From an uncultured Gammaproteobacteria bacterium (GTDB lineage: Bacteria; Patescibacteriota; Microgenomatia; Levybacterales; UBA12049): a DNA stretch of 64,000 nucleotides. The notes under the pieces are model-generated. The model saw only the letters and a list, made by a program, of their open reading frames with translations. It was not told where the DNA came from and did not search any database. The DNA is taken from assembly GCA_965230895.1 (NCBI GenBank), contig OZ246394.1:916668-980667 (forward strand), given 5' to 3'. Positions 4,467 to 48,961 of this stretch are shown piece after piece (the stretch's first letter is position 1; every line of letters starts with the position of its first letter). Position numbers and translations under genes: made by a program.

Positions 4467-5909
4467 ATGACAAATATAGAAACATCAAGACAATCAATCA
4501 GACGACCAGCAACATTGCAGGCTTTCGATTCCGCATGCAGTACAACTGAAGTTGGAAAAGTTGTCGTAGGGAACAAGCTTGCACAATCAAGCGACATTAG
4601 AAGATTAGGCAGTGAAGTTGCAAGAGGTGCAGAGGCAAATCCAACTCGAGTTGGAGAACTTTCTGAAAAAGTAAACGGCGCAGTCTATGGTGCGTTGAAA
4701 AGAATGTATGATTTAGCACCAGAAACTGAAACCGGAGACGGAGAGACTCCACAAGCCTTTTTTCAAAGACATATGGGCATTGCCGAGAGTACAGTTCGAA
4801 GATTAGCAGAGAGCGTAAATCCAAGTGACCCATTATTGGATGAGCCCCCGCATGAATTTGCATCACCAGCAGATGTTATCAAACACCTGTCGTCACCCGG
4901 TACTACGCCGGAGTCGCGAAGAGCGGTTACAACGAGATTGGCTTTTGGATTAACGTCAGCAGAAATGGAGCAACACTTTGAAGGAACAACTGAAGTCCTT
5001 CAGGAAGTTGATGGCATGATTGGATCCGCAATTATTGTTGGTCCACGCGGTTCAGGAGATATTTTTACAGTTCATGATAATAGAACCAATACTCTTGCAC
5101 GAGCAGCGATTACATTGCAAGCATTGTTTGAAGAACCTTTGGATCCTGATGTACACGTTAAGCAACATGATCTCAATGGAGATTTCCAACACATAGGTCA
5201 AACTGAGGATCAAACTGTTGGTTTGGTTGCTGTACGATCACGAATTAAATCGGGAGAGACTGCTTTATTAAAAACCGTTCGAGAAGCAATTTTGAGAACA
5301 GAAAAAGCAGATGAAGATACTACTGAAGCAGGCAATTTAAATGCATCAGATACACAAGATAGAATTGGTTCAACATTCGTGGCTCTTGAGGCAGAGCACA
5401 GTTATGATCAGAAAGTTAGTGCATTGAGAGACAGTGTCTTGAAACAATTCCAAGCACTCTACCCCAATCTAACTGAAGAAGATTTCGTAGAAGATTCAAA
5501 GACAAACCAACGACCTGATTCTGTTGACTTTACATTCCAGAGAGTACTTGTAAATAATATTCCAGGAATTGATGGATACTATGAAATAATGTTCTTCGGA
5601 CAGGATTATTTCAACTATAAATATGCTGTTGGTGATACAGATCCTGAAACTGGTAGACCTGACGGATGTGCTCATTCATTGTATGAAGGAACAAGGTTTT
5701 TCAAAACATATAATGAGATATTTAAACCAAACAATCCTGAAGGTATTGAAAGAAATATGTATGCAGACAGAGTAGAACAGTTACTTGATGATAACAGAAT
5801 CGATACCGCCGATCTGAAAAAGAAATATGAGGAGCAGCAAGAAGGGGCGAGTTCTGAAGTATTTGTGAGAAGACTCCCAAATACTGGAGTCGTATTTAGT
5901 ACGGTTTAA
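4467..5909 (+). CDS. Hypothetical acidic soluble protein (480 aa), no recognisable domain
   Basis: Long clean ORF with slightly higher GC than its neighbours. It is preceded by an attenuator-like hairpin and U-run. Confidence 0.5.
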   Translation: MTNIETSRQSIRRPATLQAFDSACSTTEVGKVVVGNKLAQSSDIRRLGSEVARGAEANPTRVGELSEKVNGAVYGALKRMYDLAPETETGDGETPQAFFQRHMGIAESTVRRLAESVNPSDPLLDEPPHEFASPADVIKHLSSPGTTPESRRAVTTRLAFGLTSAEMEQHFEGTTEVLQEVDGMIGSAIIVGPRGSGDIFTVHDNRTNTLARAAITLQALFEEPLDPDVHVKQHDLNGDFQHIGQTEDQTVGLVAVRSRIKSGETALLKTVREAILRTEKADEDTTEAGNLNASDTQDRIGSTFVALEAEHSYDQKVSALRDSVLKQFQALYPNLTEEDFVEDSKTNQRPDSVDFTFQRVLVNNIPGIDGYYEIMFFGQDYFNYKYAVGDTDPETGRPDGCAHSLYEGTRFFKTYNEIFKPNNPEGIERNMYADRVEQLLDDNRIDTADLKKKYEEQQEGASSEVFVRRLPNTGVVFSTV

Positions 5910-33254: not shown

Positions 33255-33515
33255 CTATACACTAAATAGGTACAGGGAGAGTACCACACCCAGGCAGGCA
33301 ATCAAAATATACTCAATAACTAATCGGACATGCAATTCGTGATGGACATAATGGTGAAGTAATGACCATATGAAATAACATGTTGCCGTCATAGTAATAA
33401 TTAATGCTTGTAACTTACTACTCTGGCTATTAAGTGTAATTAATGCCAATCCTAATCCAAAGATCAACAGTGTTGAACTGTAATACCAAATATGTTTGCG
33501 TATATCCTGAATCAT
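33255..33515 (-). CDS. Small two-TM membrane protein
   Basis: 86-aa hydrophobic ORF with a 1-nt overlap to the upstream CAP-domain gene. Confidence 0.3.
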   Translation of the reverse strand: MIQDIRKHIWYYSSTLLIFGLGLALITLNSQSSKLQALIITMTATCYFIWSLLHHYVHHELHVRLVIEYILIACLGVVLSLYLFSV

Positions 33516-34453
33516 TATAAAATTACTCCTCTACCAATAATTATACCCGCTATCAAAATGAATAAAAGGAAAAGAATATGATCGATATTATGTGAGAATG
33601 CTCGGACGATCTTTTTGCGTTCAATGATAATTGCATCAAGTACGAGAACAAAGATAAAGAATAACAGGAAGAAATATGAGATGTTTTGTTTGATAGAGTT
33701 AGCATCGATCAATGGAGAACTTTGTACAGAAGCTACTCCAGCAAGATCTTTTGGATTTTCATCGGTGCTTGCTGTAATAGGAGCAGGCGTCGGCGTAGGT
33801 TCAGGAGTCATGGTTGGCTGGTTATTTGTATTAACTGGCGGTGCTAGCCCCGTTGGCACAACAGCCAATTGTCCTTCCTCATCTTTAGGTGTGTATGGAC
33901 TTCCAAACATTTGAACCACGAGCACAGTATCTGATCCAGTTAATGTTCCTGGTAGGACAGCAAAGCCGATATCGGTATAATTTGGTGACAGCATATTCTC
34001 ACGATGAGTAGGGCTATCCATCCAGGCATCAACGACAGCCTTTCCGCTATCAAACCCTCTTGCAAGATTCTCTCCTGCGTATAAATATTGATAGCCAGAA
34101 TCTTTGATAAATACCCAAGGAGTTGTACCATCAGGCGCGACATGTGCCCAATAATTCTTCGCAAACATATGATGTGCTTTATGATCTGCTGCCGAAGACA
34201 ATTTCGCGTTTAATTTTAGCGGCGCTAGACCATTTGCCTGACGTTTGATATTTGTATAGGTCAACAGATCCTGAATAGATATACTTGTAGAATCTCCAAG
34301 CACTGCAGGATACTGTTTTTCCACGCCAGCCATTGTTATCAAGCCTGACATCAAAAACGCCACGATCAAAAAGATAATTTCATAATGCAAAACTCGTGGA
34401 CGATAATTATTGGTATGGCGAGGAATTAAAAGATGATGGAGAAAATTTCTCAT
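33515..34453 (-). CDS. CAP/SCP/PR-1 domain protein with N-terminal TM, a Pro/Thr linker and a C-terminal TM
   Basis: HHMFAKNYWAHVAPDGTTPW...GENLARGF...HRENMLSPNYTDIGFAV CAP-domain signatures. Confidence 0.7.
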   Translation of the reverse strand: MRNFLHHLLIPRHTNNYRPRVLHYEIIFLIVAFLMSGLITMAGVEKQYPAVLGDSTSISIQDLLTYTNIKRQANGLAPLKLNAKLSSAADHKAHHMFAKNYWAHVAPDGTTPWVFIKDSGYQYLYAGENLARGFDSGKAVVDAWMDSPTHRENMLSPNYTDIGFAVLPGTLTGSDTVLVVQMFGSPYTPKDEEGQLAVVPTGLAPPVNTNNQPTMTPEPTPTPAPITASTDENPKDLAGVASVQSSPLIDANSIKQNISYFFLLFFIFVLVLDAIIIERKKIVRAFSHNIDHILFLLFILIAGIIIGRGVIL

Positions 34454-34508: not shown

Positions 34509-34826
34509 CTAGGAATAAACGGCTTCAACTGCTTCTCCAACTTTTTTTCCGTTAATAGGAACTTGTAAGAGTTGCCCTAATGTATTTGCAATTGTTATGC
34601 CAACCCGCAATCCGGTAAAAGAACCAGGACCAACGTTCACTTCAATTTCAGTAATATCTTTCAAGTCTATATGATTATCCGCAAGCACGGATTGAATCAT
34701 CGGTAATACAATCTGACTTTTTCGGTGATTTGGAATTTGCGTACGAACATCTTCTCTAGCATCAATTTTTAAACGGATCACAGTTTCCTTATTGTTTGAA
34801 GTATCAATGTATAAAATATTTTTCAT
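34509..34826 (-). CDS. tsaB: TsaB (YeaZ)-like protein, truncated to the N-terminal ASKHA half-domain (105 aa)
   Basis: MKNILYIDTS...GPGSFTGLRVGITIANTL matches the TsaB N-terminus. It ends about 120 aa short of a canonical TsaB. Confidence 0.55.
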   Translation of the reverse strand: MKNILYIDTSNNKETVIRLKIDAREDVRTQIPNHRKSQIVLPMIQSVLADNHIDLKDITEIEVNVGPGSFTGLRVGITIANTLGQLLQVPINGKKVGEAVEAVYS

Positions 34827-35396
34827 TTAAGTATGTACAGCTCCTTGGCGTAAGATTTTCCATGGATCATCAACTACTGAAATGACAGTCGATGCTTCCT
34901 TAGTAAAAGTTTCTCCAGGGACAACGTAATCAACTAATTTTACCAATTCTGGATCGAGATCTTCAAATGCATAGGGTGTTTTTTCTCCAGGGAAATTTGC
35001 CGAAGAACCAAGGATAGGAACACCAACACCATTGATTATCTCAAGTGTTGTGAGATGATTTGGTACTCGAACTCCGAGAGTATTATCCTTTCGAACTAAT
35101 GAAGGTATCTTATCAGTTTTACATCGGAGTACAATTGTAAGACCACCTGGCCAATGCGGGCTAATAAGTTTGGTAATTACGTCTGGAGAAACTGGCTCAA
35201 TATACGGCTCAAGCATTTCAAGGCTTGCAGCAAGAACAGGCGTTGCTTTGTCCTCAGGTCTTCTTCTTAGTGCGAACAATCGCTTCACTGACTCTTCATT
35301 ATCGATTCTGCAACCGATACCAAAAGCTGTATCTGTAGGGAAGATAACGACTCCACCGTCTTTGATAATTCTTACCGCTTTTTGCACATGATCCAT
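34827..35396 (-). CDS. tsaC: L-threonylcarbamoyladenylate synthase (YrdC/Sua5 domain)
   Basis: VIFPTDTAFGIGC...RPEDKATPVL...LTIVLR YrdC signatures. Confidence 0.8.
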   Translation of the reverse strand: MDHVQKAVRIIKDGGVVIFPTDTAFGIGCRIDNEESVKRLFALRRRPEDKATPVLAASLEMLEPYIEPVSPDVITKLISPHWPGGLTIVLRCKTDKIPSLVRKDNTLGVRVPNHLTTLEIINGVGVPILGSSANFPGEKTPYAFEDLDPELVKLVDYVVPGETFTKEASTVISVVDDPWKILRQGAVHT

Positions 35397-35466: not shown

Positions 35467-36063
35467 ATGGATCAAAACACTGAAACTGCCACTTCTTATT
35501 ACAACGCACATCGAAGAAAATCTTTTTTTCTTTCTCGCCTTTTCGTTCTTATTTCAATGCTCGTTCTTATCGTGACTTTGGGTGTAAATATTGCAGTCCT
35601 GTATCAACAAAGAACTTCCGCAACCACAAGAGCATCTGGTCCAGTTGGCCAAAATAATCTTCCTGCGCTTCCACAAGGCTGTGAATATGAAACAAAACAG
35701 AATGGCGTAGTAGTTGTTTGCCCTACAGAAACACCACAAGCATCTCCAACGATTGCTTCAAATCCTAAGTTTCCAATTAATGTAGAGCTACCCGAGCTTC
35801 CGGAGCCATGTACATATGCTTCTTCAAATGGTGGATTTGAGGTAAATTGCACCAGTCCAAATGCAGTCATACCAACCTCTCCAGTAAGAACAGTTACCTC
35901 ATGCCAAGTAGGAACTGAGAAAAACACATTAATTTGTCGCGAAACTACTGGAGAAAAAGTTGTTGTACCTTTACCACCATTACCTGCAGGCTGCGAGTAT
36001 CAAGTTGTAGCAAGAAATTATTTTGTTAGCTGCAAACCAAGTAAAGTTTCAGTACAGAACTAG
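35467..36063 (+). CDS. Secreted or membrane-anchored protein with four tandem Cys-pair repeats (LPxLPxxCxY...VxC)
   Basis: N-terminal TM LFVLISMLVLIVTLGV. Repeats LPALPQGCEYETKQNGVVVVC / LPELPEPCTYASSNGGFEVNC / TSCQVGTEKNTLIC / LPPLPAGCEYQVVARNYFVSC. Confidence 0.5.
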   Translation: MDQNTETATSYYNAHRRKSFFLSRLFVLISMLVLIVTLGVNIAVLYQQRTSATTRASGPVGQNNLPALPQGCEYETKQNGVVVVCPTETPQASPTIASNPKFPINVELPELPEPCTYASSNGGFEVNCTSPNAVIPTSPVRTVTSCQVGTEKNTLICRETTGEKVVVPLPPLPAGCEYQVVARNYFVSCKPSKVSVQN

Positions 36064-36488
36064 GAGCTAAACGTAATACTTCTTTCGTCATCTTCCAAAT
36101 ATTCAAAGTAAATATCAATCCTGTCTTTTGGCAGAATACTCTCAATCTTTTCAGGCCATTCAATAGCGACAATGTTTTCCCTTTCTCCAATCAGTTCAAG
36201 CAAACCTAATCCCTCAACATCTTTTTCAGAAGCGATTCGATACAAATCTACGTGGAATAGATTCTGAATTGGAGAATCTGCAACTTCATATGTTCGCATG
36301 ATTATAAAAGTAGGAGAAATAATATTCCGTTTAATCCCCAATCCCTTTGCCAAACCCTGCATAAATGTCGTTTTGCCAGAACCCAAATCACCATGCAGCG
36401 CAAGGACTTCTCCTCCTTTTAAGGCCTTTGCAAGTTCTAAACCTAGTTGTTGCGTCTCTTTAAAACTTTTTGTAATTATTTTTTTCAT
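36060..36488 (-). CDS. tsaE: tRNA t6A biosynthesis ATPase TsaE (YjeE)
   Basis: Walker A GDLGSGKTTF and the TsaE-typical SPTF motif. Confidence 0.8.
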   Translation of the reverse strand: MKKIITKSFKETQQLGLELAKALKGGEVLALHGDLGSGKTTFMQGLAKGLGIKRNIISPTFIIMRTYEVADSPIQNLFHVDLYRIASEKDVEGLGLLELIGERENIVAIEWPEKIESILPKDRIDIYFEYLEDDERSITFSS

Positions 36489-36489
36489 A

Positions 36490-37368
36490 TTATGTACGCT
36501 GCTTCAGTTTTTTCAGAAATATGACAACAGCACAGGCAATTATAAACCCTGCACCCAAAATTGTAAAAAGGGCTGGTGCACTAGAAGCACCCTTTACTTT
36601 CACAGGAATAGACGGAAGAGGAATACGGGTTGGTTCATTTGCTTTGGTCTTAGCACCAAGAATTGCTGTAGGATATGCTCCACGACTTGCAACTTTTGCG
36701 GAAGCATTTGCTGGACGAATCGTCGGAGAGAGACGAATACTGGTTGGTGTTGGCAAAGAAGTTGAACTCCGAACCGTAGGAGTTCTTGTCGCTGTTGATC
36801 GAGAGATTGTGGAACCTGATTGCGCTTGCGTTGATGAAGAAACTCCTTGAGAAGCTGCAGTTTTTGCTGTGGGTTCTGGTTCGGGAGTATTCGTAGGCAT
36901 TGGTCCAGAATTTGGACTGCCTTTTGTTGTACTGGAAAGATACGCAAAGCTTCCATTCCCATCTGGAAATCTTCCCATAGCAACATCATACCCAGGCCCA
37001 TCCGTATAAGTCAGTTGATCCGCTATAGAACCGCTGGAACTAAAAAGAACGACAGTATCACCATCATTGTTAAACATTGATGCAGTCAATTCAATGTAAT
37101 AATGTTGACTATCACTCCCAGCAACAACACCGTCTAAGCTCTTTTTTGCACTTCCACCATTATCGTTGGCAAAATCAGTGTCATCATCGATCCAGTAATT
37201 CTTCAAATCACTACTATCTGTCACATACAACTCTACCCATTCTTTATTTCCAGCAGTTGGATGAGCGAGTACTTCATTAATGGTGACAGGACTTGCTGCA
37301 TATGCTTGGTTTGGAAAGTTCACCAGTAAAATAAGAAGAGAACCTAGTATAATGAGAAGAGACTGCAT
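36490..37368 (-). CDS. Secreted lamin-tail-domain (LTD) protein with a Pro/Thr/Ser-rich linker and a C-terminal TM anchor
   Basis: Signal peptide, then PVTINEVLAHPTAGNKEWVELYVT (LTD signature), a PT-rich low-complexity stretch, and C-terminal ALFTILGAGFIIACAVVIFL. Confidence 0.55.
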   Translation of the reverse strand: MQSLLIILGSLLILLVNFPNQAYAASPVTINEVLAHPTAGNKEWVELYVTDSSDLKNYWIDDDTDFANDNGGSAKKSLDGVVAGSDSQHYYIELTASMFNNDGDTVVLFSSSGSIADQLTYTDGPGYDVAMGRFPDGNGSFAYLSSTTKGSPNSGPMPTNTPEPEPTAKTAASQGVSSSTQAQSGSTISRSTATRTPTVRSSTSLPTPTSIRLSPTIRPANASAKVASRGAYPTAILGAKTKANEPTRIPLPSIPVKVKGASSAPALFTILGAGFIIACAVVIFLKKLKQRT

Positions 37369-37410
37369 GATAGTTTAATCATACATGAAAACTATAAGAA
37401 AGAGAATGTA

Positions 37411-38583
37411 TTAGTTATACCAACCGTATTGAGAGATGCTAGAGTAATAATCGGAGAATTTAAGATCAGGCCCATTCCATGGATCATTCATGATGTAATT
37501 TCCTGCTGATCCACTCTTCAAAACGACAAAGTGAGAATTGTTTTTGACACCAACAATAACTGGCTCACCACTTGCCAGCTTACTATCAATTGCAGATTGG
37601 TTATTTCCCCATGCTGAAGAGAATTTGCCTCCACCCCATGGAATAGCCATATATGCAGTGTTTGAGAAGAAATATGAACTATTACTTGTCACTGATGCTG
37701 GAGTAACGTCTTCTCCATGCTTTTTCATAATCATAGCCATAGAAGTTGCAAGACATCCAACTTCCCAAACATATTCAGGAGATGATCCCATATTTGAATT
37801 ACCCCATCGGGAATCCCGCTGATTGAAGTACCACCCATCAGGACTTGCTTGTGGAGGAAGCACAGATCCACCATGGCCTCGCGCGAAAGATTTCATTGAA
37901 TTAACTTGCGCACGCGCCTGAGACAATAAAGTCTGGTAATGAGCTTCATCGTTCTTTGTAGCTGTCAATAAACTTTGTTTACTCGCCTTATCTTTATCAA
38001 GTTGTACTTGATAGCCTTCAAGCTGTTTGTTTAGTTCTTCAACTTTCTTCTTTTTCTGCTCAAGAATCGTCTTTTGATTTGCATAATCATTCCTTGCCTG
38101 TTGAGTATCATAAAGCAATTGTCGGTCATGACTCTGAACAATCTTCAGATAATTTGCACGAGACATAAGATCAGACATATTTCCAGAAGCTAGAAGAACC
38201 TGCAGTTCTTTTGCATCGCCAGCTTGGTATGTTGCGACAATTCGATTAAGTAATACCTTGGTTGTGTTATCAAGCGAACCCTCAAGGTTGTTCATGCGCT
38301 TGCCCGCTGATTCGATATCAAGAGTTATATCCATAACTTCTTTTTGTGTCGCATCGATACGATATTCAGTTAATGAGATTTGTCCATCCATAGCAGCAAT
38401 TTGTGAAGATAAAGAATTTCCTTGAGATTTAAGATCTGAGACTTTTCTTTCAAGTTCGCGGATACGATTATTAAGGTCGTTTACTTGCTGCTGGTTACCT
38501 GTAGATTGTGTTTGTGCATACACAAATGCACCGCTTACTCCAAAACCTACAATAGCAAGAATAAAAATTAGTAATCTCTTCAT
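37411..38583 (-). CDS. Secreted coiled-coil protein with a C-terminal papain-like (Peptidase_C39-like) domain; candidate FtsEX-regulated peptidoglycan hydrolase (PcsB/CwlO analogue)
   Basis: Signal peptide, about 220 aa of heptad-rich coiled coil, then QRDSRWGNSNMGSSPEYVWEVGCLATSMAMIM...NSHFVVL (Q...C...H arrangement as in C39-like domains). It lies directly downstream of ftsEX. Confidence 0.55.
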   Translation of the reverse strand: MKRLLIFILAIVGFGVSGAFVYAQTQSTGNQQQVNDLNNRIRELERKVSDLKSQGNSLSSQIAAMDGQISLTEYRIDATQKEVMDITLDIESAGKRMNNLEGSLDNTTKVLLNRIVATYQAGDAKELQVLLASGNMSDLMSRANYLKIVQSHDRQLLYDTQQARNDYANQKTILEQKKKKVEELNKQLEGYQVQLDKDKASKQSLLTATKNDEAHYQTLLSQARAQVNSMKSFARGHGGSVLPPQASPDGWYFNQRDSRWGNSNMGSSPEYVWEVGCLATSMAMIMKKHGEDVTPASVTSNSSYFFSNTAYMAIPWGGGKFSSAWGNNQSAIDSKLASGEPVIVGVKNNSHFVVLKSGSAGNYIMNDPWNGPDLKFSDYYSSISQYGWYN

Positions 38584-38620
38584 AATGATTCGGGCCGTTC
38601 AATTATACGACCAAGTTGTT

Positions 38621-39487
38621 TTATTTCAAGTACCGGCGTACAGCAAGTGAGCTGGCGAGGATGCCAAGGAAAACTGCAATAACTAACTCACCAAGCAAAA
38701 GCGCTACTAAGAATACTGGTGATACCGGAAGCACAGGAATTCCCTTTAAGAACGTTTCAAGATATGGTGTCGCATAGAGAAGTCCACCTGAAGCAACAAG
38801 CCAGCCGATAAGTGTTCCAAGAATACCATAGAAAATACCTTCCAGAATAAAAGGCATGCGGATATACATATTGGTCGCGGAAAGGAGCTTCATAATTTCG
38901 ATTTCTTCTTTCTTTTGCGAAACTTTAAATCCGATGACAGTCATCATGATAAAGACAGATACAAGTGCCAACACAGCAATAAGCGTTATCCCAACAATAC
39001 GAACAGCATTGGTCCAGCTTGCCAAAGTCGAGACAATATCTTTTTGGTAGATTACTTCATTAACATACGGCGATGCTCGAAGTGTATTGGAGACAGGTTC
39101 GAGATCTTCAATTTTATAGGTAGAGATTTCCAGCGAAGCAGGCAAGATATCTTCTGTTACCAAATCAAGTAATAACGGATCGTTTTTATTTTGTTCTTTA
39201 TAGATCTGCAATGCTTCTGCTTTGGATACATATTTTGTTGAAGCAATTTGTCCTGTTTGTTGGAGTTGTGCACGAAGTTGATCAATATCTTGAGGCTTTG
39301 CTTCATCTTTAAAGAACGCTGTAACTTGTGGCTTTGATTCAAAATATTGAATGACCGCTGAAGATCCAAACACGATGAAAGAGAAAATCGTTATAGAAAG
39401 AAATGTCAGCATCATGATAAAAACAGCTGCCATTGACTGATATGGACTTCTTCGAATGTGTTTTAACGTTGTCTTAGTTGCTCGCAT
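38621..39487 (-). CDS. ftsX: Cell-division ABC transporter permease FtsX
   Basis: N-terminal TM, large extracellular loop, three C-terminal TMs. Start chosen at MRATK (39487), 4 nt after the ftsE stop; the track ORF overlaps ftsE by 47 nt. Confidence 0.75.
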   Translation of the reverse strand: MRATKTTLKHIRRSPYQSMAAVFIMMLTFLSITIFSFIVFGSSAVIQYFESKPQVTAFFKDEAKPQDIDQLRAQLQQTGQIASTKYVSKAEALQIYKEQNKNDPLLLDLVTEDILPASLEISTYKIEDLEPVSNTLRASPYVNEVIYQKDIVSTLASWTNAVRIVGITLIAVLALVSVFIMMTVIGFKVSQKKEEIEIMKLLSATNMYIRMPFILEGIFYGILGTLIGWLVASGGLLYATPYLETFLKGIPVLPVSPVFLVALLLGELVIAVFLGILASSLAVRRYLK

Positions 39488-39491
39488 ACAT

Positions 39492-40187
39492 TTATTCCTC
39501 TTTTTTAGCGTGAGCTTTTGTTTCACGCTTATCATCACGGGTTAAAATACCTTTTTCGAGAATCAATGTTCTTTTCTGCATACTGTTCACAATATCGGCA
39601 TTATGTGTTGCCATAATAATAGTTGTACCACTATCGTTGATATCCTGCAAAAGTTTTACGATTTCCCATGTTGTCGCATTATCTAAATTACCTGTCGGTT
39701 CGTCAGCAAGAAGAATTTCAGGATTGAAAGCTAGTGCTCTAGCGATTGCTGCTCGTTGTAATTCTCCTCCAGATAATTGGATTGGGAATTTATTTATGTG
39801 CTCCTGAATTCCCACACGTTCGATAATCTCTTCTACTCGCTTTTTTGCATCGTGTGTATCCATGTTCCCTACTTCGAGCGGAAACATAATATTTTCAAAA
39901 ATTGTCCTATCACGCAAAAGCTTTAAATCCTGAAATACCATTCCGATATTTTTTCGCAAATGATGCACTTTCTTATGAGGAAGTTTCACAAGATCCCAAT
40001 CCCCTATATGGATTGCACCACTTGTCGGGACAGTATCACGGATAAGCAAGCGGAACAAGGTAGTCTTCCCGGATCCAGACGGTCCAACTAAAAAGACAAA
40101 TTCTCCACGATCAATCGTGAAGGTAACATCAGCAAGAGCTGTATTTCCAGTCGGATATGCTTTGGTAACATTTTCTAGTCGTATCAT
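39492..40187 (-). CDS. ftsE: Cell-division ATP-binding protein FtsE
   Basis: MIRLENVTKAYPTGNTAL, Walker A GPSGSGKTT, LSGGELQR, Walker B LLADEPTGNLD. Confidence 0.85.
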   Translation of the reverse strand: MIRLENVTKAYPTGNTALADVTFTIDRGEFVFLVGPSGSGKTTLFRLLIRDTVPTSGAIHIGDWDLVKLPHKKVHHLRKNIGMVFQDLKLLRDRTIFENIMFPLEVGNMDTHDAKKRVEEIIERVGIQEHINKFPIQLSGGELQRAAIARALAFNPEILLADEPTGNLDNATTWEIVKLLQDINDSGTTIIMATHNADIVNSMQKRTLILEKGILTRDDKRETKAHAKKEE

Positions 40188-40269
40188 AGGTCATTGCAGG
40201 GATATATTTTGGGCGGCAATCTCCTCCCCGACGAGATTGCTGCTCCCGCCGAATGACGGATCGTCGAGA

Positions 40270-40821
40270 CTATTGTACCTCAACTCGTCCAACATCCATG
40301 AGCCAGCCAGCATGCTGTGCGGTTTGCGTAGCGCCCCATACTTTTACTTTTTGATCTACGAACTTTGAAAGATCAACTGTTGAAGAAGTCATATACACAT
40401 TTTGACTTTCACCACCTGGACGCTCTAAATGATATTGCCCTTCTCCTTCGATACCGCCTTCTTTGAGTGTTCCTTCAGCTGTATCTTTATATGCCGATGT
40501 GTCATCGGAGCCAAAAGTTTCACCTTTCGCTGGAGCATTCGGATTGAGCGCACTTGGTACAACACTCTTTTGTCCAGGCTTGGATGTAAAAGCTGCAACT
40601 CCATATCCTGTTCCAACACCAAGAGCAGCCATCACTAAAAGTACAACGAGAATTTGGATTGTTGATGGTGCTTTTTTTGTCTCCTTAAATGATTGCATCG
40701 TTGGTCCTGACTGTTTGCCATCAAATGCAGATTTTGAAGCAGTTGATCCATCTGTCTTTGAAGCAGATGAACTTGAAGCTGGGGCTGCTGTTGATGGTTT
40801 TGGTGTTTCTTTATTTTCCAT
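40270..40821 (-). CDS. Hypothetical single-TM protein with a low-complexity N-terminus and a 110-aa extracytoplasmic C-terminal domain
   Basis: 183 aa, TM IQILVVLLVMAALGVGTGYGVAAF. It is the first gene of the ftsEX-containing operon. Confidence 0.4.
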   Translation of the reverse strand: MENKETPKPSTAAPASSSSASKTDGSTASKSAFDGKQSGPTMQSFKETKKAPSTIQILVVLLVMAALGVGTGYGVAAFTSKPGQKSVVPSALNPNAPAKGETFGSDDTSAYKDTAEGTLKEGGIEGEGQYHLERPGGESQNVYMTSSTVDLSKFVDQKVKVWGATQTAQHAGWLMDVGRVEVQ

Positions 40822-46810: not shown

Positions 46811-48961
46811 TTACAATGATGATGAAAGCTCACGGAGAAAAAGATTATAGTCGCCACTTTCGACTTTTCCATTATCATCAAGGTCTGTATTTATCGCAGG
46901 AACATGCACTTGGCAAACAGGTTTATTGAAAGGTGCATTCGGGTCACTAATAGGGAGCGGATTAATTACTCCATATCCACAATCAAGAAAAGCATTGTAA
47001 TCCATAACATTGATCAAGTTATCCCCTGTCACATCTCCTGCATTAAGCGAAATTTGAGAGAGAGCATTTTCTTCGTTAGAAACTAAGGAAATAACTACAT
47101 TCTTTTGTAAATACCTATCACTTTTAATGCGCATGCTATATGTCCCTGAAGAGAAATTACTTCCCAAATCGACTTTGCCTATAAAGTTTCCAGAAGCAAC
47201 ATCATAAGTGATGGTAGCTGATTTGCTAGCAACATTATTATTGGTACTATCAAAAAGACTTACTGATACATTCCGTTGCGGAGTTTGCGGAGATTTATTG
47301 CTTAAGCTTCCTCCTCCAGGATTTGAATTATCTCCTGATGAACCAATTCCATGAAGAGCAATTGTAAATGAAAGTATTGTAGAAGATCCCCCAAGATTTG
47401 GCGTTGTTGGAGTAATTGTTGAAGCACCTGTCGGTTGTGGTGTAAAAAATGGTGTTGGCGGAGTTGACCCAAAATTGATAGCTACTGTCGCTTGTGTTGC
47501 TATCGCTGTCTTTGTTTGCACTGAAATCTTGTTGTCCCCATCGAAAAATACCATGCCCGGCTCAAGTGCCGAATCCGCAAATGTTGTAGTTGCTGGGTTT
47601 GCATCGAGGAGGACAACATCACAGCTGTCTCCACTAGGACATTCTACTGGCGCAAGACGGATACTAACACCCTTAAAAATATTGGATGCAGGACGCTCCT
47701 GAAGAGGTAGATAGTCAAAAAAATTAATGAATTGATCGACACCATATGGTTGACGATATTCCAGATAATAATACTGCTTCTGGCCAGAAGCTGTCGTTGT
47801 GTTTCTTGGGATTTTAATAAGCTGAACCGATGAGGATGTCTGTTCTTGTGGAACAATCGTATATGTACCTGCAGATGTCACTTCCTGAATATTTCCTGAC
47901 GCATACCATCCTGCTGATTCTTTATGTACATTACTGATATGCCCCAAACCGCCACCTAGTGGCTCATACGGATCTCCCGCATCATCTATGCAGTTATTAC
48001 TGATCGTAACTCTTTTGCCAGAACTATCCGTGCAGGAAAAAGCATAAGCATGCCGGAGATAACCATCTGTCGTTTGTCCAGACCCATAGGGCAAAGTATG
48101 AGCAATTTCATGGAGAAAAACATGCTTGTACGAAGACACCGGATATGTAGGATCTGAGATAATAATATAGCTATTGTTCGCACTTGATAACCCGACAAAT
48201 CCCTTACATCCATTCGTCACAGGGAATACAAAAATGAATTTATCATATCCTGTCATATCTTTTCCTGCTTTTTGCGCTTCTTGTTTAGCGAGCTCTCCCC
48301 AATTCAGAATTTGTTCGTTTGCACATTCGGATTTAGGAGTACCAACAACAAGATCATAAGGAACGGTATACCACCCAAATACATCCCCATCAGGACTAGT
48401 TTTGCCTTGCAAATTGTATAAACCATAAGAAGCCTCTTTAAAATAGTTTTTAATGGAATCTGTGTCAGTAAAAATTGTCTTTTTTGTAGCATCTTGTGTA
48501 AATGGTTGCCTTGTATTATTTCTGAAGTTAAACAAGATCACAGCAGTTCTAATATTTTTAACTGTTGCGGCAGCTGTGACTTGAGATCGAGGTTCATCAA
48601 GGATTTGGACCGCGTTGAGGTCTTTGGCATCAACTGTTAATATATCCTTTTCGATTACGCCAGTGAGTTTCACGTGTGTATCTGGTGCAAATTGTAAAGG
48701 TTTTCCATTTGAAAAGCGTACTTGGAATGTTTTTTTATCCAGAGTTCTTAGTGAATACTCCATCGTTGATTTTCCGGATTCTTGGTCGAGAATAAAGATC
48801 GTAATGGTTCCCTCAATCGTTCTTGTTTCTGACTGCATAGATGCACGAGAACGGATGTCATTTCTTTCTGTTTGGAAAATGGTTATCGGTAAGATGACTA
48901 AGCCAATAAGTAAAATGCTCAGGACTACAAAAACTGGAGTATTACGGAATTTTCGCCCCAT
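46811..48961 (-). CDS. Membrane-anchored secreted Zn-metalloprotease-like protein (HExxH) with a Thr/Pro linker and a C-terminal dockerin-like Ca-binding repeat pair
   Basis: N-terminal TM. VFLHEIAHTL zincin motif. C-terminus GDVTGDNLINVMDYNAFLD...DLDDNGKVESGDYNLFLREL (two dockerin-type-I-like loops). Confidence 0.5.
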   Translation of the reverse strand: MGRKFRNTPVFVVLSILLIGLVILPITIFQTERNDIRSRASMQSETRTIEGTITIFILDQESGKSTMEYSLRTLDKKTFQVRFSNGKPLQFAPDTHVKLTGVIEKDILTVDAKDLNAVQILDEPRSQVTAAATVKNIRTAVILFNFRNNTRQPFTQDATKKTIFTDTDSIKNYFKEASYGLYNLQGKTSPDGDVFGWYTVPYDLVVGTPKSECANEQILNWGELAKQEAQKAGKDMTGYDKFIFVFPVTNGCKGFVGLSSANNSYIIISDPTYPVSSYKHVFLHEIAHTLPYGSGQTTDGYLRHAYAFSCTDSSGKRVTISNNCIDDAGDPYEPLGGGLGHISNVHKESAGWYASGNIQEVTSAGTYTIVPQEQTSSSVQLIKIPRNTTTASGQKQYYYLEYRQPYGVDQFINFFDYLPLQERPASNIFKGVSIRLAPVECPSGDSCDVVLLDANPATTTFADSALEPGMVFFDGDNKISVQTKTAIATQATVAINFGSTPPTPFFTPQPTGASTITPTTPNLGGSSTILSFTIALHGIGSSGDNSNPGGGSLSNKSPQTPQRNVSVSLFDSTNNNVASKSATITYDVASGNFIGKVDLGSNFSSGTYSMRIKSDRYLQKNVVISLVSNEENALSQISLNAGDVTGDNLINVMDYNAFLDCGYGVINPLPISDPNAPFNKPVCQVHVPAINTDLDDNGKVESGDYNLFLRELSSSL

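Follow-up and report, generated by a model that had tools for sequence, protein, structure and literature searches.

A predicted FtsEX partner with a C39-like peptidase head in a Levybacteria-like genome

Which enzyme stands behind ftsE and ftsX in a Levybacteria-like genome, and what would it cut? The question is raised by a stretch of 64,000 nucleotides (nt) of contig OZ246394.1, here called the window, in which the gene directly after ftsX encodes a 390-amino-acid (aa) protein with a signal peptide, a coiled coil and a C-terminal domain resembling the Peptidase_C39 families. The activation of PcsB, RipC and EnvC by FtsEX has been reviewed, and the catalytic domains of FtsEX partners in that 2024 review are LytM, CHAP and NlpC/P60 only (PMC11627006). 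A first-pass annotation of the window, made from the sequence, had proposed that the catalytic domain found here is a swap outside the characterised FtsEX partners. The proposal agrees with the domain list of the review and with our full-text literature searches, which returned no paper describing a C39-like FtsEX partner or FtsEX partners in Patescibacteria. Since automated pipelines of the Joint Genome Institute label the family 'peptidoglycan hydrolase CwlO-like protein', its general nature is already half-recognised. Our reading, to which we give a probability of about 0.7, is that the 390-aa protein is an FtsEX-controlled extracytoplasmic peptidoglycan hydrolase, built to the PcsB/CwlO/RipC design with a C39-like head. 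The features concerned are the following (ORF, open reading frame):

39492-40187, minus strand: ftsE (TIGR02673, PF00005)
38621-39487 (longest ORF to 39538), minus strand: ftsX, 288 aa (FtsX_ECD, FtsX)
37411-38583, minus strand: coiled-coil peptidase, predicted, 390 aa (ORF, Pfam, AlphaFold model)
38515-38583, minus strand: signal peptide of the 390-aa protein, residues 1-23, MKRLLIFILAIVGFGVSGAFVYA (read from the sequence)
37876-38502, minus strand: coiled-coil domain, residues 28-236 (AlphaFold model, CC_PcsB, EnvC profile match, Foldseek)
37414-37866, minus strand: papain-like domain of Peptidase_C39_2 type, residues 240-390 (PF13529, PF03412, AlphaFold model)
37819-37821, 37753-37755, 37531-37533 and 37483-37485, minus strand: codons of the predicted catalytic residues Gln255, Cys277, His351 and Asp367, respectively

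These genes belong to a run of six co-directional ORFs on the minus strand (36060-40821), separated by gaps of 1-82 nt according to the ORF listing and translations; the shared strand and the short gaps suggest an operon. The first-pass annotation had described the same run, headed by the single-pass membrane protein p183 and ended by tsaE, and all six ORFs are indeed present in that arrangement. FtsE matched the TIGR02673 equivalog model with 267.7 bits (cut-off 264.85) and PF00005 with 125.8 bits. FtsX exceeded the Pfam cut-offs for both FtsX_ECD (65.9 bits) and FtsX (43.4 bits); the NCBIfam FtsX models matched it with E ≤1e-53, yet below their strict cut-offs. Based on the equivalog match of FtsE and on an adjacent FtsX with an extracellular domain, the two genes are assigned as an FtsEX pair. 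The likely start of ftsX is the ATG at 39487, which is preceded by an AAGAGGA ribosome-binding site, lies 4 nt past the ftsE stop and agrees with public gene calls, also of 288 aa.

The N-terminal part of the 390-aa protein consists of a Sec-type signal peptide (residues 1-23, cleavage after VYA), and a hydrophobic N-terminal leader is common to all 31 aligned homologues. In a full-length AlphaFold model built on these 31 homologues (predicted local distance difference test, pLDDT, 76), helices at residues 28-53, 58-122, 126-132 and 136-236 are followed by a compact alpha/beta domain, in line with the signal peptide and coiled coil that the first-pass annotation had read here. The Pfam family CC_PcsB matched 25 of the 31 homologues, with the window protein itself just short of the cut-off (25.2 vs 27). 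When the 31-homologue profile was compared with the Protein Data Bank (PDB), the best match was Escherichia coli EnvC (5.4e-9, 38.8 bits), in a gap-free and colinear alignment over the whole coiled coil (positions 40-246); unrelated coiled coils reached at most 24.8 bits. The top ranks of a Foldseek search with the full-length model were PcsB (4cgk), the N-terminal domain of RipA (6ewy), RipC as bound in its complex with FtsEX (8idc_E) and EnvC taken from two FtsEX complexes (8tzl_E and 6tpi_A). The template modelling (TM) scores of these matches were low, as is expected for long flexible hairpins, and the ranking is therefore the informative part of the result. Hence, both sequence and fold relate the coiled coil to its counterparts in known FtsEX partners. 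By analogy with them, it is predicted to form a PcsB/CwlO/EnvC-type helical hairpin, presumably the module that docks on FtsX.

The C-terminal domain scored above threshold for PF13529 (Peptidase_C39_2; 26.1 vs 24) and PF03412 (Peptidase_C39; 24.4 vs 22), and PF13529 matched 29 of the 31 homologues with a best E of 1.1e-8. A C-terminal head of the CHAP, NlpC/P60 or LytM (M23) type, as is usual for FtsEX partners, was not detected: CHAP, NLPC_P60 and Peptidase_M23 gave no Pfam match in the 390-aa protein at E up to 0.1 and were absent from the Foldseek top 50 for the peptidase domain. Modelled alone, the domain reached a pLDDT of 82.6 and a predicted TM-score (pTM) of 0.83. Its best Foldseek matches were the C39 domains of LahT, ComA and PCAT1 at TM ~0.5, a papain-like CdiA toxin, a C39-like protein of Bacillus anthracis (3erv, TM 0.57) and the pseudomurein endoisopeptidase PeiR, followed by cathepsins and SpeB. 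A PDB profile search with the peptidase domain alone gave nothing meaningful. The model places the predicted catalytic residues in a papain arrangement, in which Cys277 opens helix 277-288, His351 opens strand 351-359 and Asp367 closes strand 362-367. Among 143 relatives, taken as representatives of 50%-identity clusters, Gln255 and Cys277 were conserved in 143/143 and His351 and Asp367 in 140/143, the His and Asp exceptions being mostly alignment gaps. Because Gln, Cys, His and Asp are essentially invariant, the domain is read as an intact cysteine peptidase and not as a degenerate adaptor. In residue order and conservation it has the marks of a clan CA papain-like peptidase, as far as model and alignment can tell. 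The first-pass annotation had assigned a C39-like domain from a Q...C...H pattern, and both parts of that call survive: Peptidase_C39_2 and Peptidase_C39 are the only peptidase families among the Pfam matches, the fold matches C39 and papain-like enzymes, GCLATSMAM holds the invariant Cys277 and NSHFVVL the invariant His351, with Gln and Asp kept as well.

The peptidase subfamily comprised 707 clusters at E up to 0.001. The coiled coil was present in 120 of the best 150 cluster representatives, and the fusion with a coiled coil is therefore the main home of this peptidase branch. Relatives of the domain also occur in other fusions, with two LysM domains in one protein and, in a Streptococcus surface protein, with six ChW repeats and a Bsp-like repeat. 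The LysM and ChW fusions are wall-binding contexts and would favour peptidoglycan as the substrate. In MEROPS, bacteriocin-processing C39 peptidases stand at the N-terminus of ABC exporters, on the cytoplasmic side, and cleave double-glycine leaders; in its placement the window domain differs, being C-terminal, behind a signal peptide and without a transporter fusion.

To what extent is this gene tied to ftsEX? A forward survey with one genome per species covered 57 loci, 41 of which encode a full-length relative (32-92% identity). In 39 of these 41, ftsX lies directly upstream of the hydrolase gene, nearly always preceded by ftsE, and the adjacency persists down to 32-39% protein identity while the flanking genes change. 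The surveyed loci include records submitted as Levybacteria, Shapirobacteria and Microgenomates and a clade titled Saccharibacteria, a label that is unconfirmed. In the reverse survey, for which a 6-sequence FtsX alignment served as query, the hydrolase gene was directly downstream of ftsX in 60/60 metagenome loci with enough downstream sequence, and ftsE was adjacent to ftsX in 55 of 56 loci. The loci found had 59-87% FtsX identity; because the alignment reached only close relatives, the reverse test covers Levybacteria-like genomes only and its 60 loci are not 60 independent events. The adjacency to ftsEX on which the first-pass annotation had built its proposal of a variant FtsEX-hydrolase module is thus conserved in relatives, in the genome loci as in the metagenome loci.

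The nearest named relatives of the 390-aa protein are from Levybacteria (Microgenomates, Patescibacteria), and identical copies of it were found on a 1.6-Mb NCBI contig as well as in several sequencing runs. Contigs of a TPA series with genes 50-92% identical to those of the Levybacteria-like window are titled 'uncultured Gammaproteobacteria' or 'Pseudomonadales' (loci L001, L007-L010, L013-L016, L019 and L030-L038). Since Levybacteria-like contigs carry the title Gammaproteobacteria, the organism titles in that series are untrustworthy. The window encodes a Peptidase_S11 DD-carboxypeptidase, which argues that the organism makes peptidoglycan.

Of the characterised FtsEX partners, PcsB of Streptococcus pneumoniae (4cgk) has a layout that recurs in the window protein: behind the signal peptide, ~200-240 aa of coiled coil lead through a short linker to a C-terminal Cys/His domain of the papain clan, in ~390 aa overall. 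PcsB was also the best Foldseek match of the full-length model, and CC_PcsB matches most family members. The two differ in the head, which is CHAP in PcsB and Peptidase_C39_2 in the window protein, where the triad has an Asp and the Gln stands 22 residues before the Cys; moreover, the window gene directly follows ftsX, and the activity of its product is one that we infer. The architecture and the presumed logic are likewise those of CwlO of Bacillus subtilis and RipC of Mycobacterium tuberculosis (8idc), the latter among the top structural matches, but both carry an NlpC/P60 head, for which the window protein has no match. In addition, RipC has a 52-aa proline-rich linker where that of the window protein is short and conserved (SILPPQxSPDGW), and CwlO acts in elongation and requires SweC and SweD. 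EnvC of E. coli (6tpi, 8hd0) was the best PDB sequence match to the family profile and is colinear with it over the coiled coil, yet its LytM domain is degenerate and it acts via AmiA and AmiB, whereas the window protein has a complete predicted cysteine-peptidase active site. The C39 domains of ComA, PCAT1 and LahT, together with 3erv, share with the window domain the papain-like fold, the Gln-Cys-His-Asp order and a His-Asp spacing of 16 residues at a sequence identity of 14-20%. The exporter domains work in the cytoplasm as parts of ABC exporters, where they cleave Gly-Gly leaders, in contrast to the secreted, coiled-coil-fused and ftsEX-linked domain of the window.

The most telling comparison is with a cultured member of the same superphylum. 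In Southlakia epibionticum ML1 (Saccharibacteria) the gene order is prfB, a 161-aa hypothetical protein, ftsE, ftsX and a 384-aa 'CHAP domain-containing protein' (PMC10633639 supplementary tables 1 and 2). In the last of these, SEML1_0236, residues 31-260 form a helical hairpin and 276-358 a CHAP domain (PF05257); its CHAP family is flagged as core and Patescibacteria-enriched (PMC10633639). By transposon sequencing (Tn-seq), ftsE, ftsX and the CHAP gene were each scored essential at every one of the three time points (PMC10633639). Set beside the window protein by its table descriptions, SEML1_0236 is likewise the product of a Patescibacterial gene directly after ftsE-ftsX, with a hairpin followed by a cysteine-proteinase fold, and it differs in having a CHAP head where the window protein has a C39-like one. 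Because Southlakia has a CHAP protein there, the slot after ftsX can be said to take a CHAP or a C39-like head in the superphylum. It looks as if the two proteins had received alternative domains on a common scaffold, and nothing supports the idea of a catalytic-domain swap more strongly than this parallel, an argument by analogy.

A mechanism can be proposed on this basis. After Sec export, the helical hairpin would dock on the extracellular domains of an FtsX dimer. ATP binding and hydrolysis by FtsE would move FtsX, and this movement would free an auto-inhibited peptidase domain, which would then cut peptide stems or cross-links of septal peptidoglycan so that the daughter cells separate. 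The protein p183 may be an accessory subunit of FtsEX, and the stalked surface protein encoded downstream, a frequent neighbour, is probably outside the enzyme. The predicted binding of the coiled coil to FtsX and the predicted activation driven by FtsE find their support in the genetic linkage (39/41 and 60/60 loci); the presumed cleavage of peptidoglycan has indirect support from the LysM and ChW fusions and the intact catalytic site.

Several results weigh against the reading of an FtsEX-controlled hydrolase. The Pfam score of the window protein barely exceeds its threshold (26.1 vs 24), and TM values of ~0.5 make the structural matches moderate ones. Among solved structures, leader-peptide proteases and not wall hydrolases stand nearest to the peptidase domain, and relatives among phage lysins did not appear as a PHROGs family or as a tblastn match in 50,697 phage records; the literature on predicted endolysins mentions Peptidase_C39_2 in domain counts only. 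Five Parcubacteria/Moranbacteria homologues (L042-L045 and L050; 456-466 aa, 26-28% identity) always follow gltX, and their fetched flanks contain no ftsEX. In two Microgenomates loci (L034, 6001-8378; L039, 6001-7664) the hydrolase gene is paired with a gene for a lamin tail domain (LTD) protein, whose start it overlaps by 4 nt, with no ftsEX nearby. RipC and EnvC touch FtsX at the hairpin tip; as a candidate for the best-conserved part of the coiled coil the tip was rejected, with residues 119-136 scoring 0.54 against 0.65-0.71 elsewhere and the best-conserved blocks at residues 57-72 and 156-171, so that no FtsX interface can be argued from conservation. Finally, the gene preceding ftsE in Southlakia (161 aa) was scored non-essential and its family is not a core one (PMC10633639), and if it corresponds to p183, this would speak against p183 as an obligatory cofactor.

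Three other readings have to be weighed in this light. It is quite improbable, in our judgement, that proteins or peptides are the substrates of the C39-like domain, which would mature or release surface proteins, for instance its stalked neighbour, or cleave secreted leaders, with FtsEX gating proteolysis. Such a role would suit the closest solved folds, which are leader-peptide C39 proteases and papain-like toxins, and the neighbourhood, in which a stalked surface protein with a cysteine-containing anchor motif (28 of 33 such proteins) follows the hydrolase gene in many loci and in which two loci retain the hydrolase-LTD pair without ftsEX. Against this, the stalked protein follows the hydrolase gene in just 33 of 57 loci, with tsaE directly after it in five, whereas the link to ftsX was seen in 60/60; true C39 domains are cytoplasmic and exporter-fused, while the window domain is secreted; the wall-binding modules LysM and ChW occur as fusion partners among its relatives; and peptidoglycan or its amidases are the targets of every characterised protein that has such a coiled coil (PMC11627006). 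A peptidoglycan hydrolase outside FtsEX control, its adjacency to ftsEX being inherited gene order and its coiled coil serving oligomerisation or another regulator, is a shade less improbable than this. Most surveyed loci come from related Microgenomates, whose counts are not independent, no ftsEX lies close to the Parcubacteria-type homologues or, in loci L034 and L039, to the hydrolase gene, and the hairpin tip shows no special conservation. However, the adjacency holds to 32-39% protein identity as flanking genes change, the coiled coil shows a specific relationship to its counterparts in EnvC and PcsB, and the Southlakia slot is occupied by a coiled-coil hydrolase that is essential along with ftsEX. 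Lastly, EnvC is the top sequence match of the coiled coil, from which one might suppose an inert, EnvC-like adaptor whose degenerate peptidase domain activates a separate amidase; since 140-143 of 143 distant relatives retain Gln, Cys, His and Asp, a pattern that marks an active papain-type site, this is very hard to credit. The FtsEX-controlled peptidoglycan hydrolase thus remains our preferred reading of the 390-aa protein.

The least understood part of the cluster is an unannotated membrane-protein family that travels with ftsE:

40270-40821, minus strand: p183, single-pass membrane protein, 183 aa (ORF)

In this protein, a cytoplasmic N-terminus of low complexity precedes one transmembrane helix (~residues 56-78) and a conserved domain of ~80 aa on the extracytoplasmic side. 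Its invariant residues include E127, G128, R134, G136, G137, S139, Q140, Y143, S146, S147, W173, M175, D176, V177 and G178. It had no match in Pfam, NCBIfam or PHROGs and no PDB match by profile. The family comprises at least 6901 clusters at 90% identity, all of them annotated 'hypothetical' and none with a Pfam domain. A homologue was found directly before ftsE in 52/52 metagenome loci with enough upstream sequence and in most Microgenomates genome loci (homologues seen in L001-L032 and L058-L137). The clade titled Saccharibacteria has a protein of 140-149 aa with a p183-like layout, the gene of which overlaps the ftsE start by 4 nt; in a profile-profile comparison it matched p183 with 78% probability (E = 1.7e-5), which is suggestive only of a relationship. 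In B. subtilis, SweC and SweD are type II single-pass membrane cofactors of FtsEX-CwlO (PMC6705773). They resemble p183 in topology, to which is added that p183 is encoded beside ftsE; the comparison rests on topology and not on sequence. By this analogy, p183 is a candidate FtsEX accessory protein. Between p183 and ftsE, the 82-nt gap contains a stem-loop whose stability does not exceed that of shuffled sequences (z = -1.15).

Downstream of the hydrolase gene the cluster is variable. In the window it continues with two genes:

36490-37368, minus strand: LTD surface protein, 292 aa (PF00932)
36060-36488, minus strand: tsaE, t6A tRNA-modification ATPase (PF02367 131.6, TIGR00150 126.5)

The LTD protein has a signal peptide, a Lamin Tail Domain at residues 22-122 (PF00932 39.7 vs 34.3), a stalk with up to 24 Pro/Thr/Ser in 40 residues around 140-220, and a C-terminal hydrophobic transmembrane anchor with an ACAVV motif and a basic tail (36490-36600); it matched no NCBIfam model. 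The first-pass annotation had described a secreted LTD protein with a Pro/Thr stalk and a C-terminal anchor and had counted its gene as part of the module. The description fits well, and the gene is there in the window, but it is a variable member of the cluster: a protein with a signal peptide, a globular domain, a Pro/Thr/Ser stalk and a C-terminal anchor follows the hydrolase in 33/57 loci, and in five loci tsaE follows directly. The globular domain is an LTD in some genomes and an unrelated beta-rich domain in others (L007, L015, L019 and L068-L133 vs the window). Since the N-terminal domain is exchanged while stalk and anchor are constant, the slot behaves like a cassette. A motif [AS]C[GA][IV][LV] inside the transmembrane helix, followed by basic residues, was present in 28 of the 33 stalked proteins (downstream genes, L001-L133), often with the only Cys of the protein, and was found in no other ORF of the window. 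From its sequence, this Cys-containing anchor looks like an undescribed C-terminal sorting signal.

A broader proposal would join these parts in a four-part, Patescibacteria-specific envelope machine of p183, FtsE, FtsX and the hydrolase, in which p183 would be a new extracytoplasmic FtsEX cofactor and the C39-like head would cut a bond that CHAP and NlpC/P60 spare, or would also process the surface proteins encoded next door, whose C-terminal anchors contain a conserved Cys. We consider this extension rather unlikely on present evidence; if it were true, division would be tied to surface-protein display in these ultrasmall cells.

The gene tsaE also lies downstream in the loci of many relatives, and its role is probably unrelated to the division genes. 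It is one of several t6A genes beside them (34509-35396, 36060-36488), which are tsaE and a Sua5/YrdC-type tsaC; a gene of 90-105 aa with a TsaD/Peptidase_M22 match, encoding a short TsaB-like protein, also stands in the t6A cluster, and this neighbourhood recurs in related loci. Converging on tsaE on the plus strand, with a 3' overlap of 4 nt, is a 198-aa ORF (35467-36063) with an N-terminal membrane helix, no Pfam match and three repeats of a Cys-pair motif (GCEYETKQNGVVVVC, PCTYASSNGGFEVNC and GCEYQVVARNYFVSC). A gene at 33515-34453 (minus strand) encodes a CAP (cysteine-rich secretory protein) domain protein that has a membrane helix at its N-terminus, a linker rich in Pro/Thr and further membrane helices at its C-terminus. 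In L007, L014 and L015 it is likewise conserved, a few genes past the downstream end of the cluster.

Across the window the G+C content is even (35-42%). We found no tRNA or Rfam family within the 64 kb, and no paralogue of the coiled coil or of the peptidase domain elsewhere in the window. Promoter and terminator scans gave nothing above chance in the region. A promoter-like TTGAAA-16-TATAAT site (38602-38629, minus strand) lies in the last ftsX codons, 19 nt 5' of the hydrolase start, and is a lead only, as promoter-like sites here do not exceed chance. Further from the cluster, the ORFs at 46811-48961 (716 aa), 527-1693 (388 aa) and 4467-5909 (480 aa) had no Pfam match at E ≤1e-5. In the segment 50675-57702, two GH130 proteins (mannoside phosphorylase-type), extended at length on the N-terminal side, are encoded side by side, and a glycogen phosphorylase-like gene adjoins them together with a gene for a starch/glycogen synthase.

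No inside-out switch for wall cleavage is better understood than FtsEX and its coiled-coil partner, to which three catalytic families have been attached so far. If our reading is right, a C39-like papain-type head would be the fourth, and would serve as the regular partner throughout a large section of the candidate phyla radiation, bacteria about whose division, to our knowledge, almost nothing is known experimentally. Because the same slot in a cultured relative holds an essential CHAP protein, the catalytic head appears to be exchanged on a constant scaffold; an exchange of papain-clan domains on a fixed scaffold is no conceptual surprise. The 390-aa protein offers a concrete septal-hydrolase candidate for Microgenomates, and a role of this kind would be the first physiological one for the secreted Peptidase_C39_2 branch.

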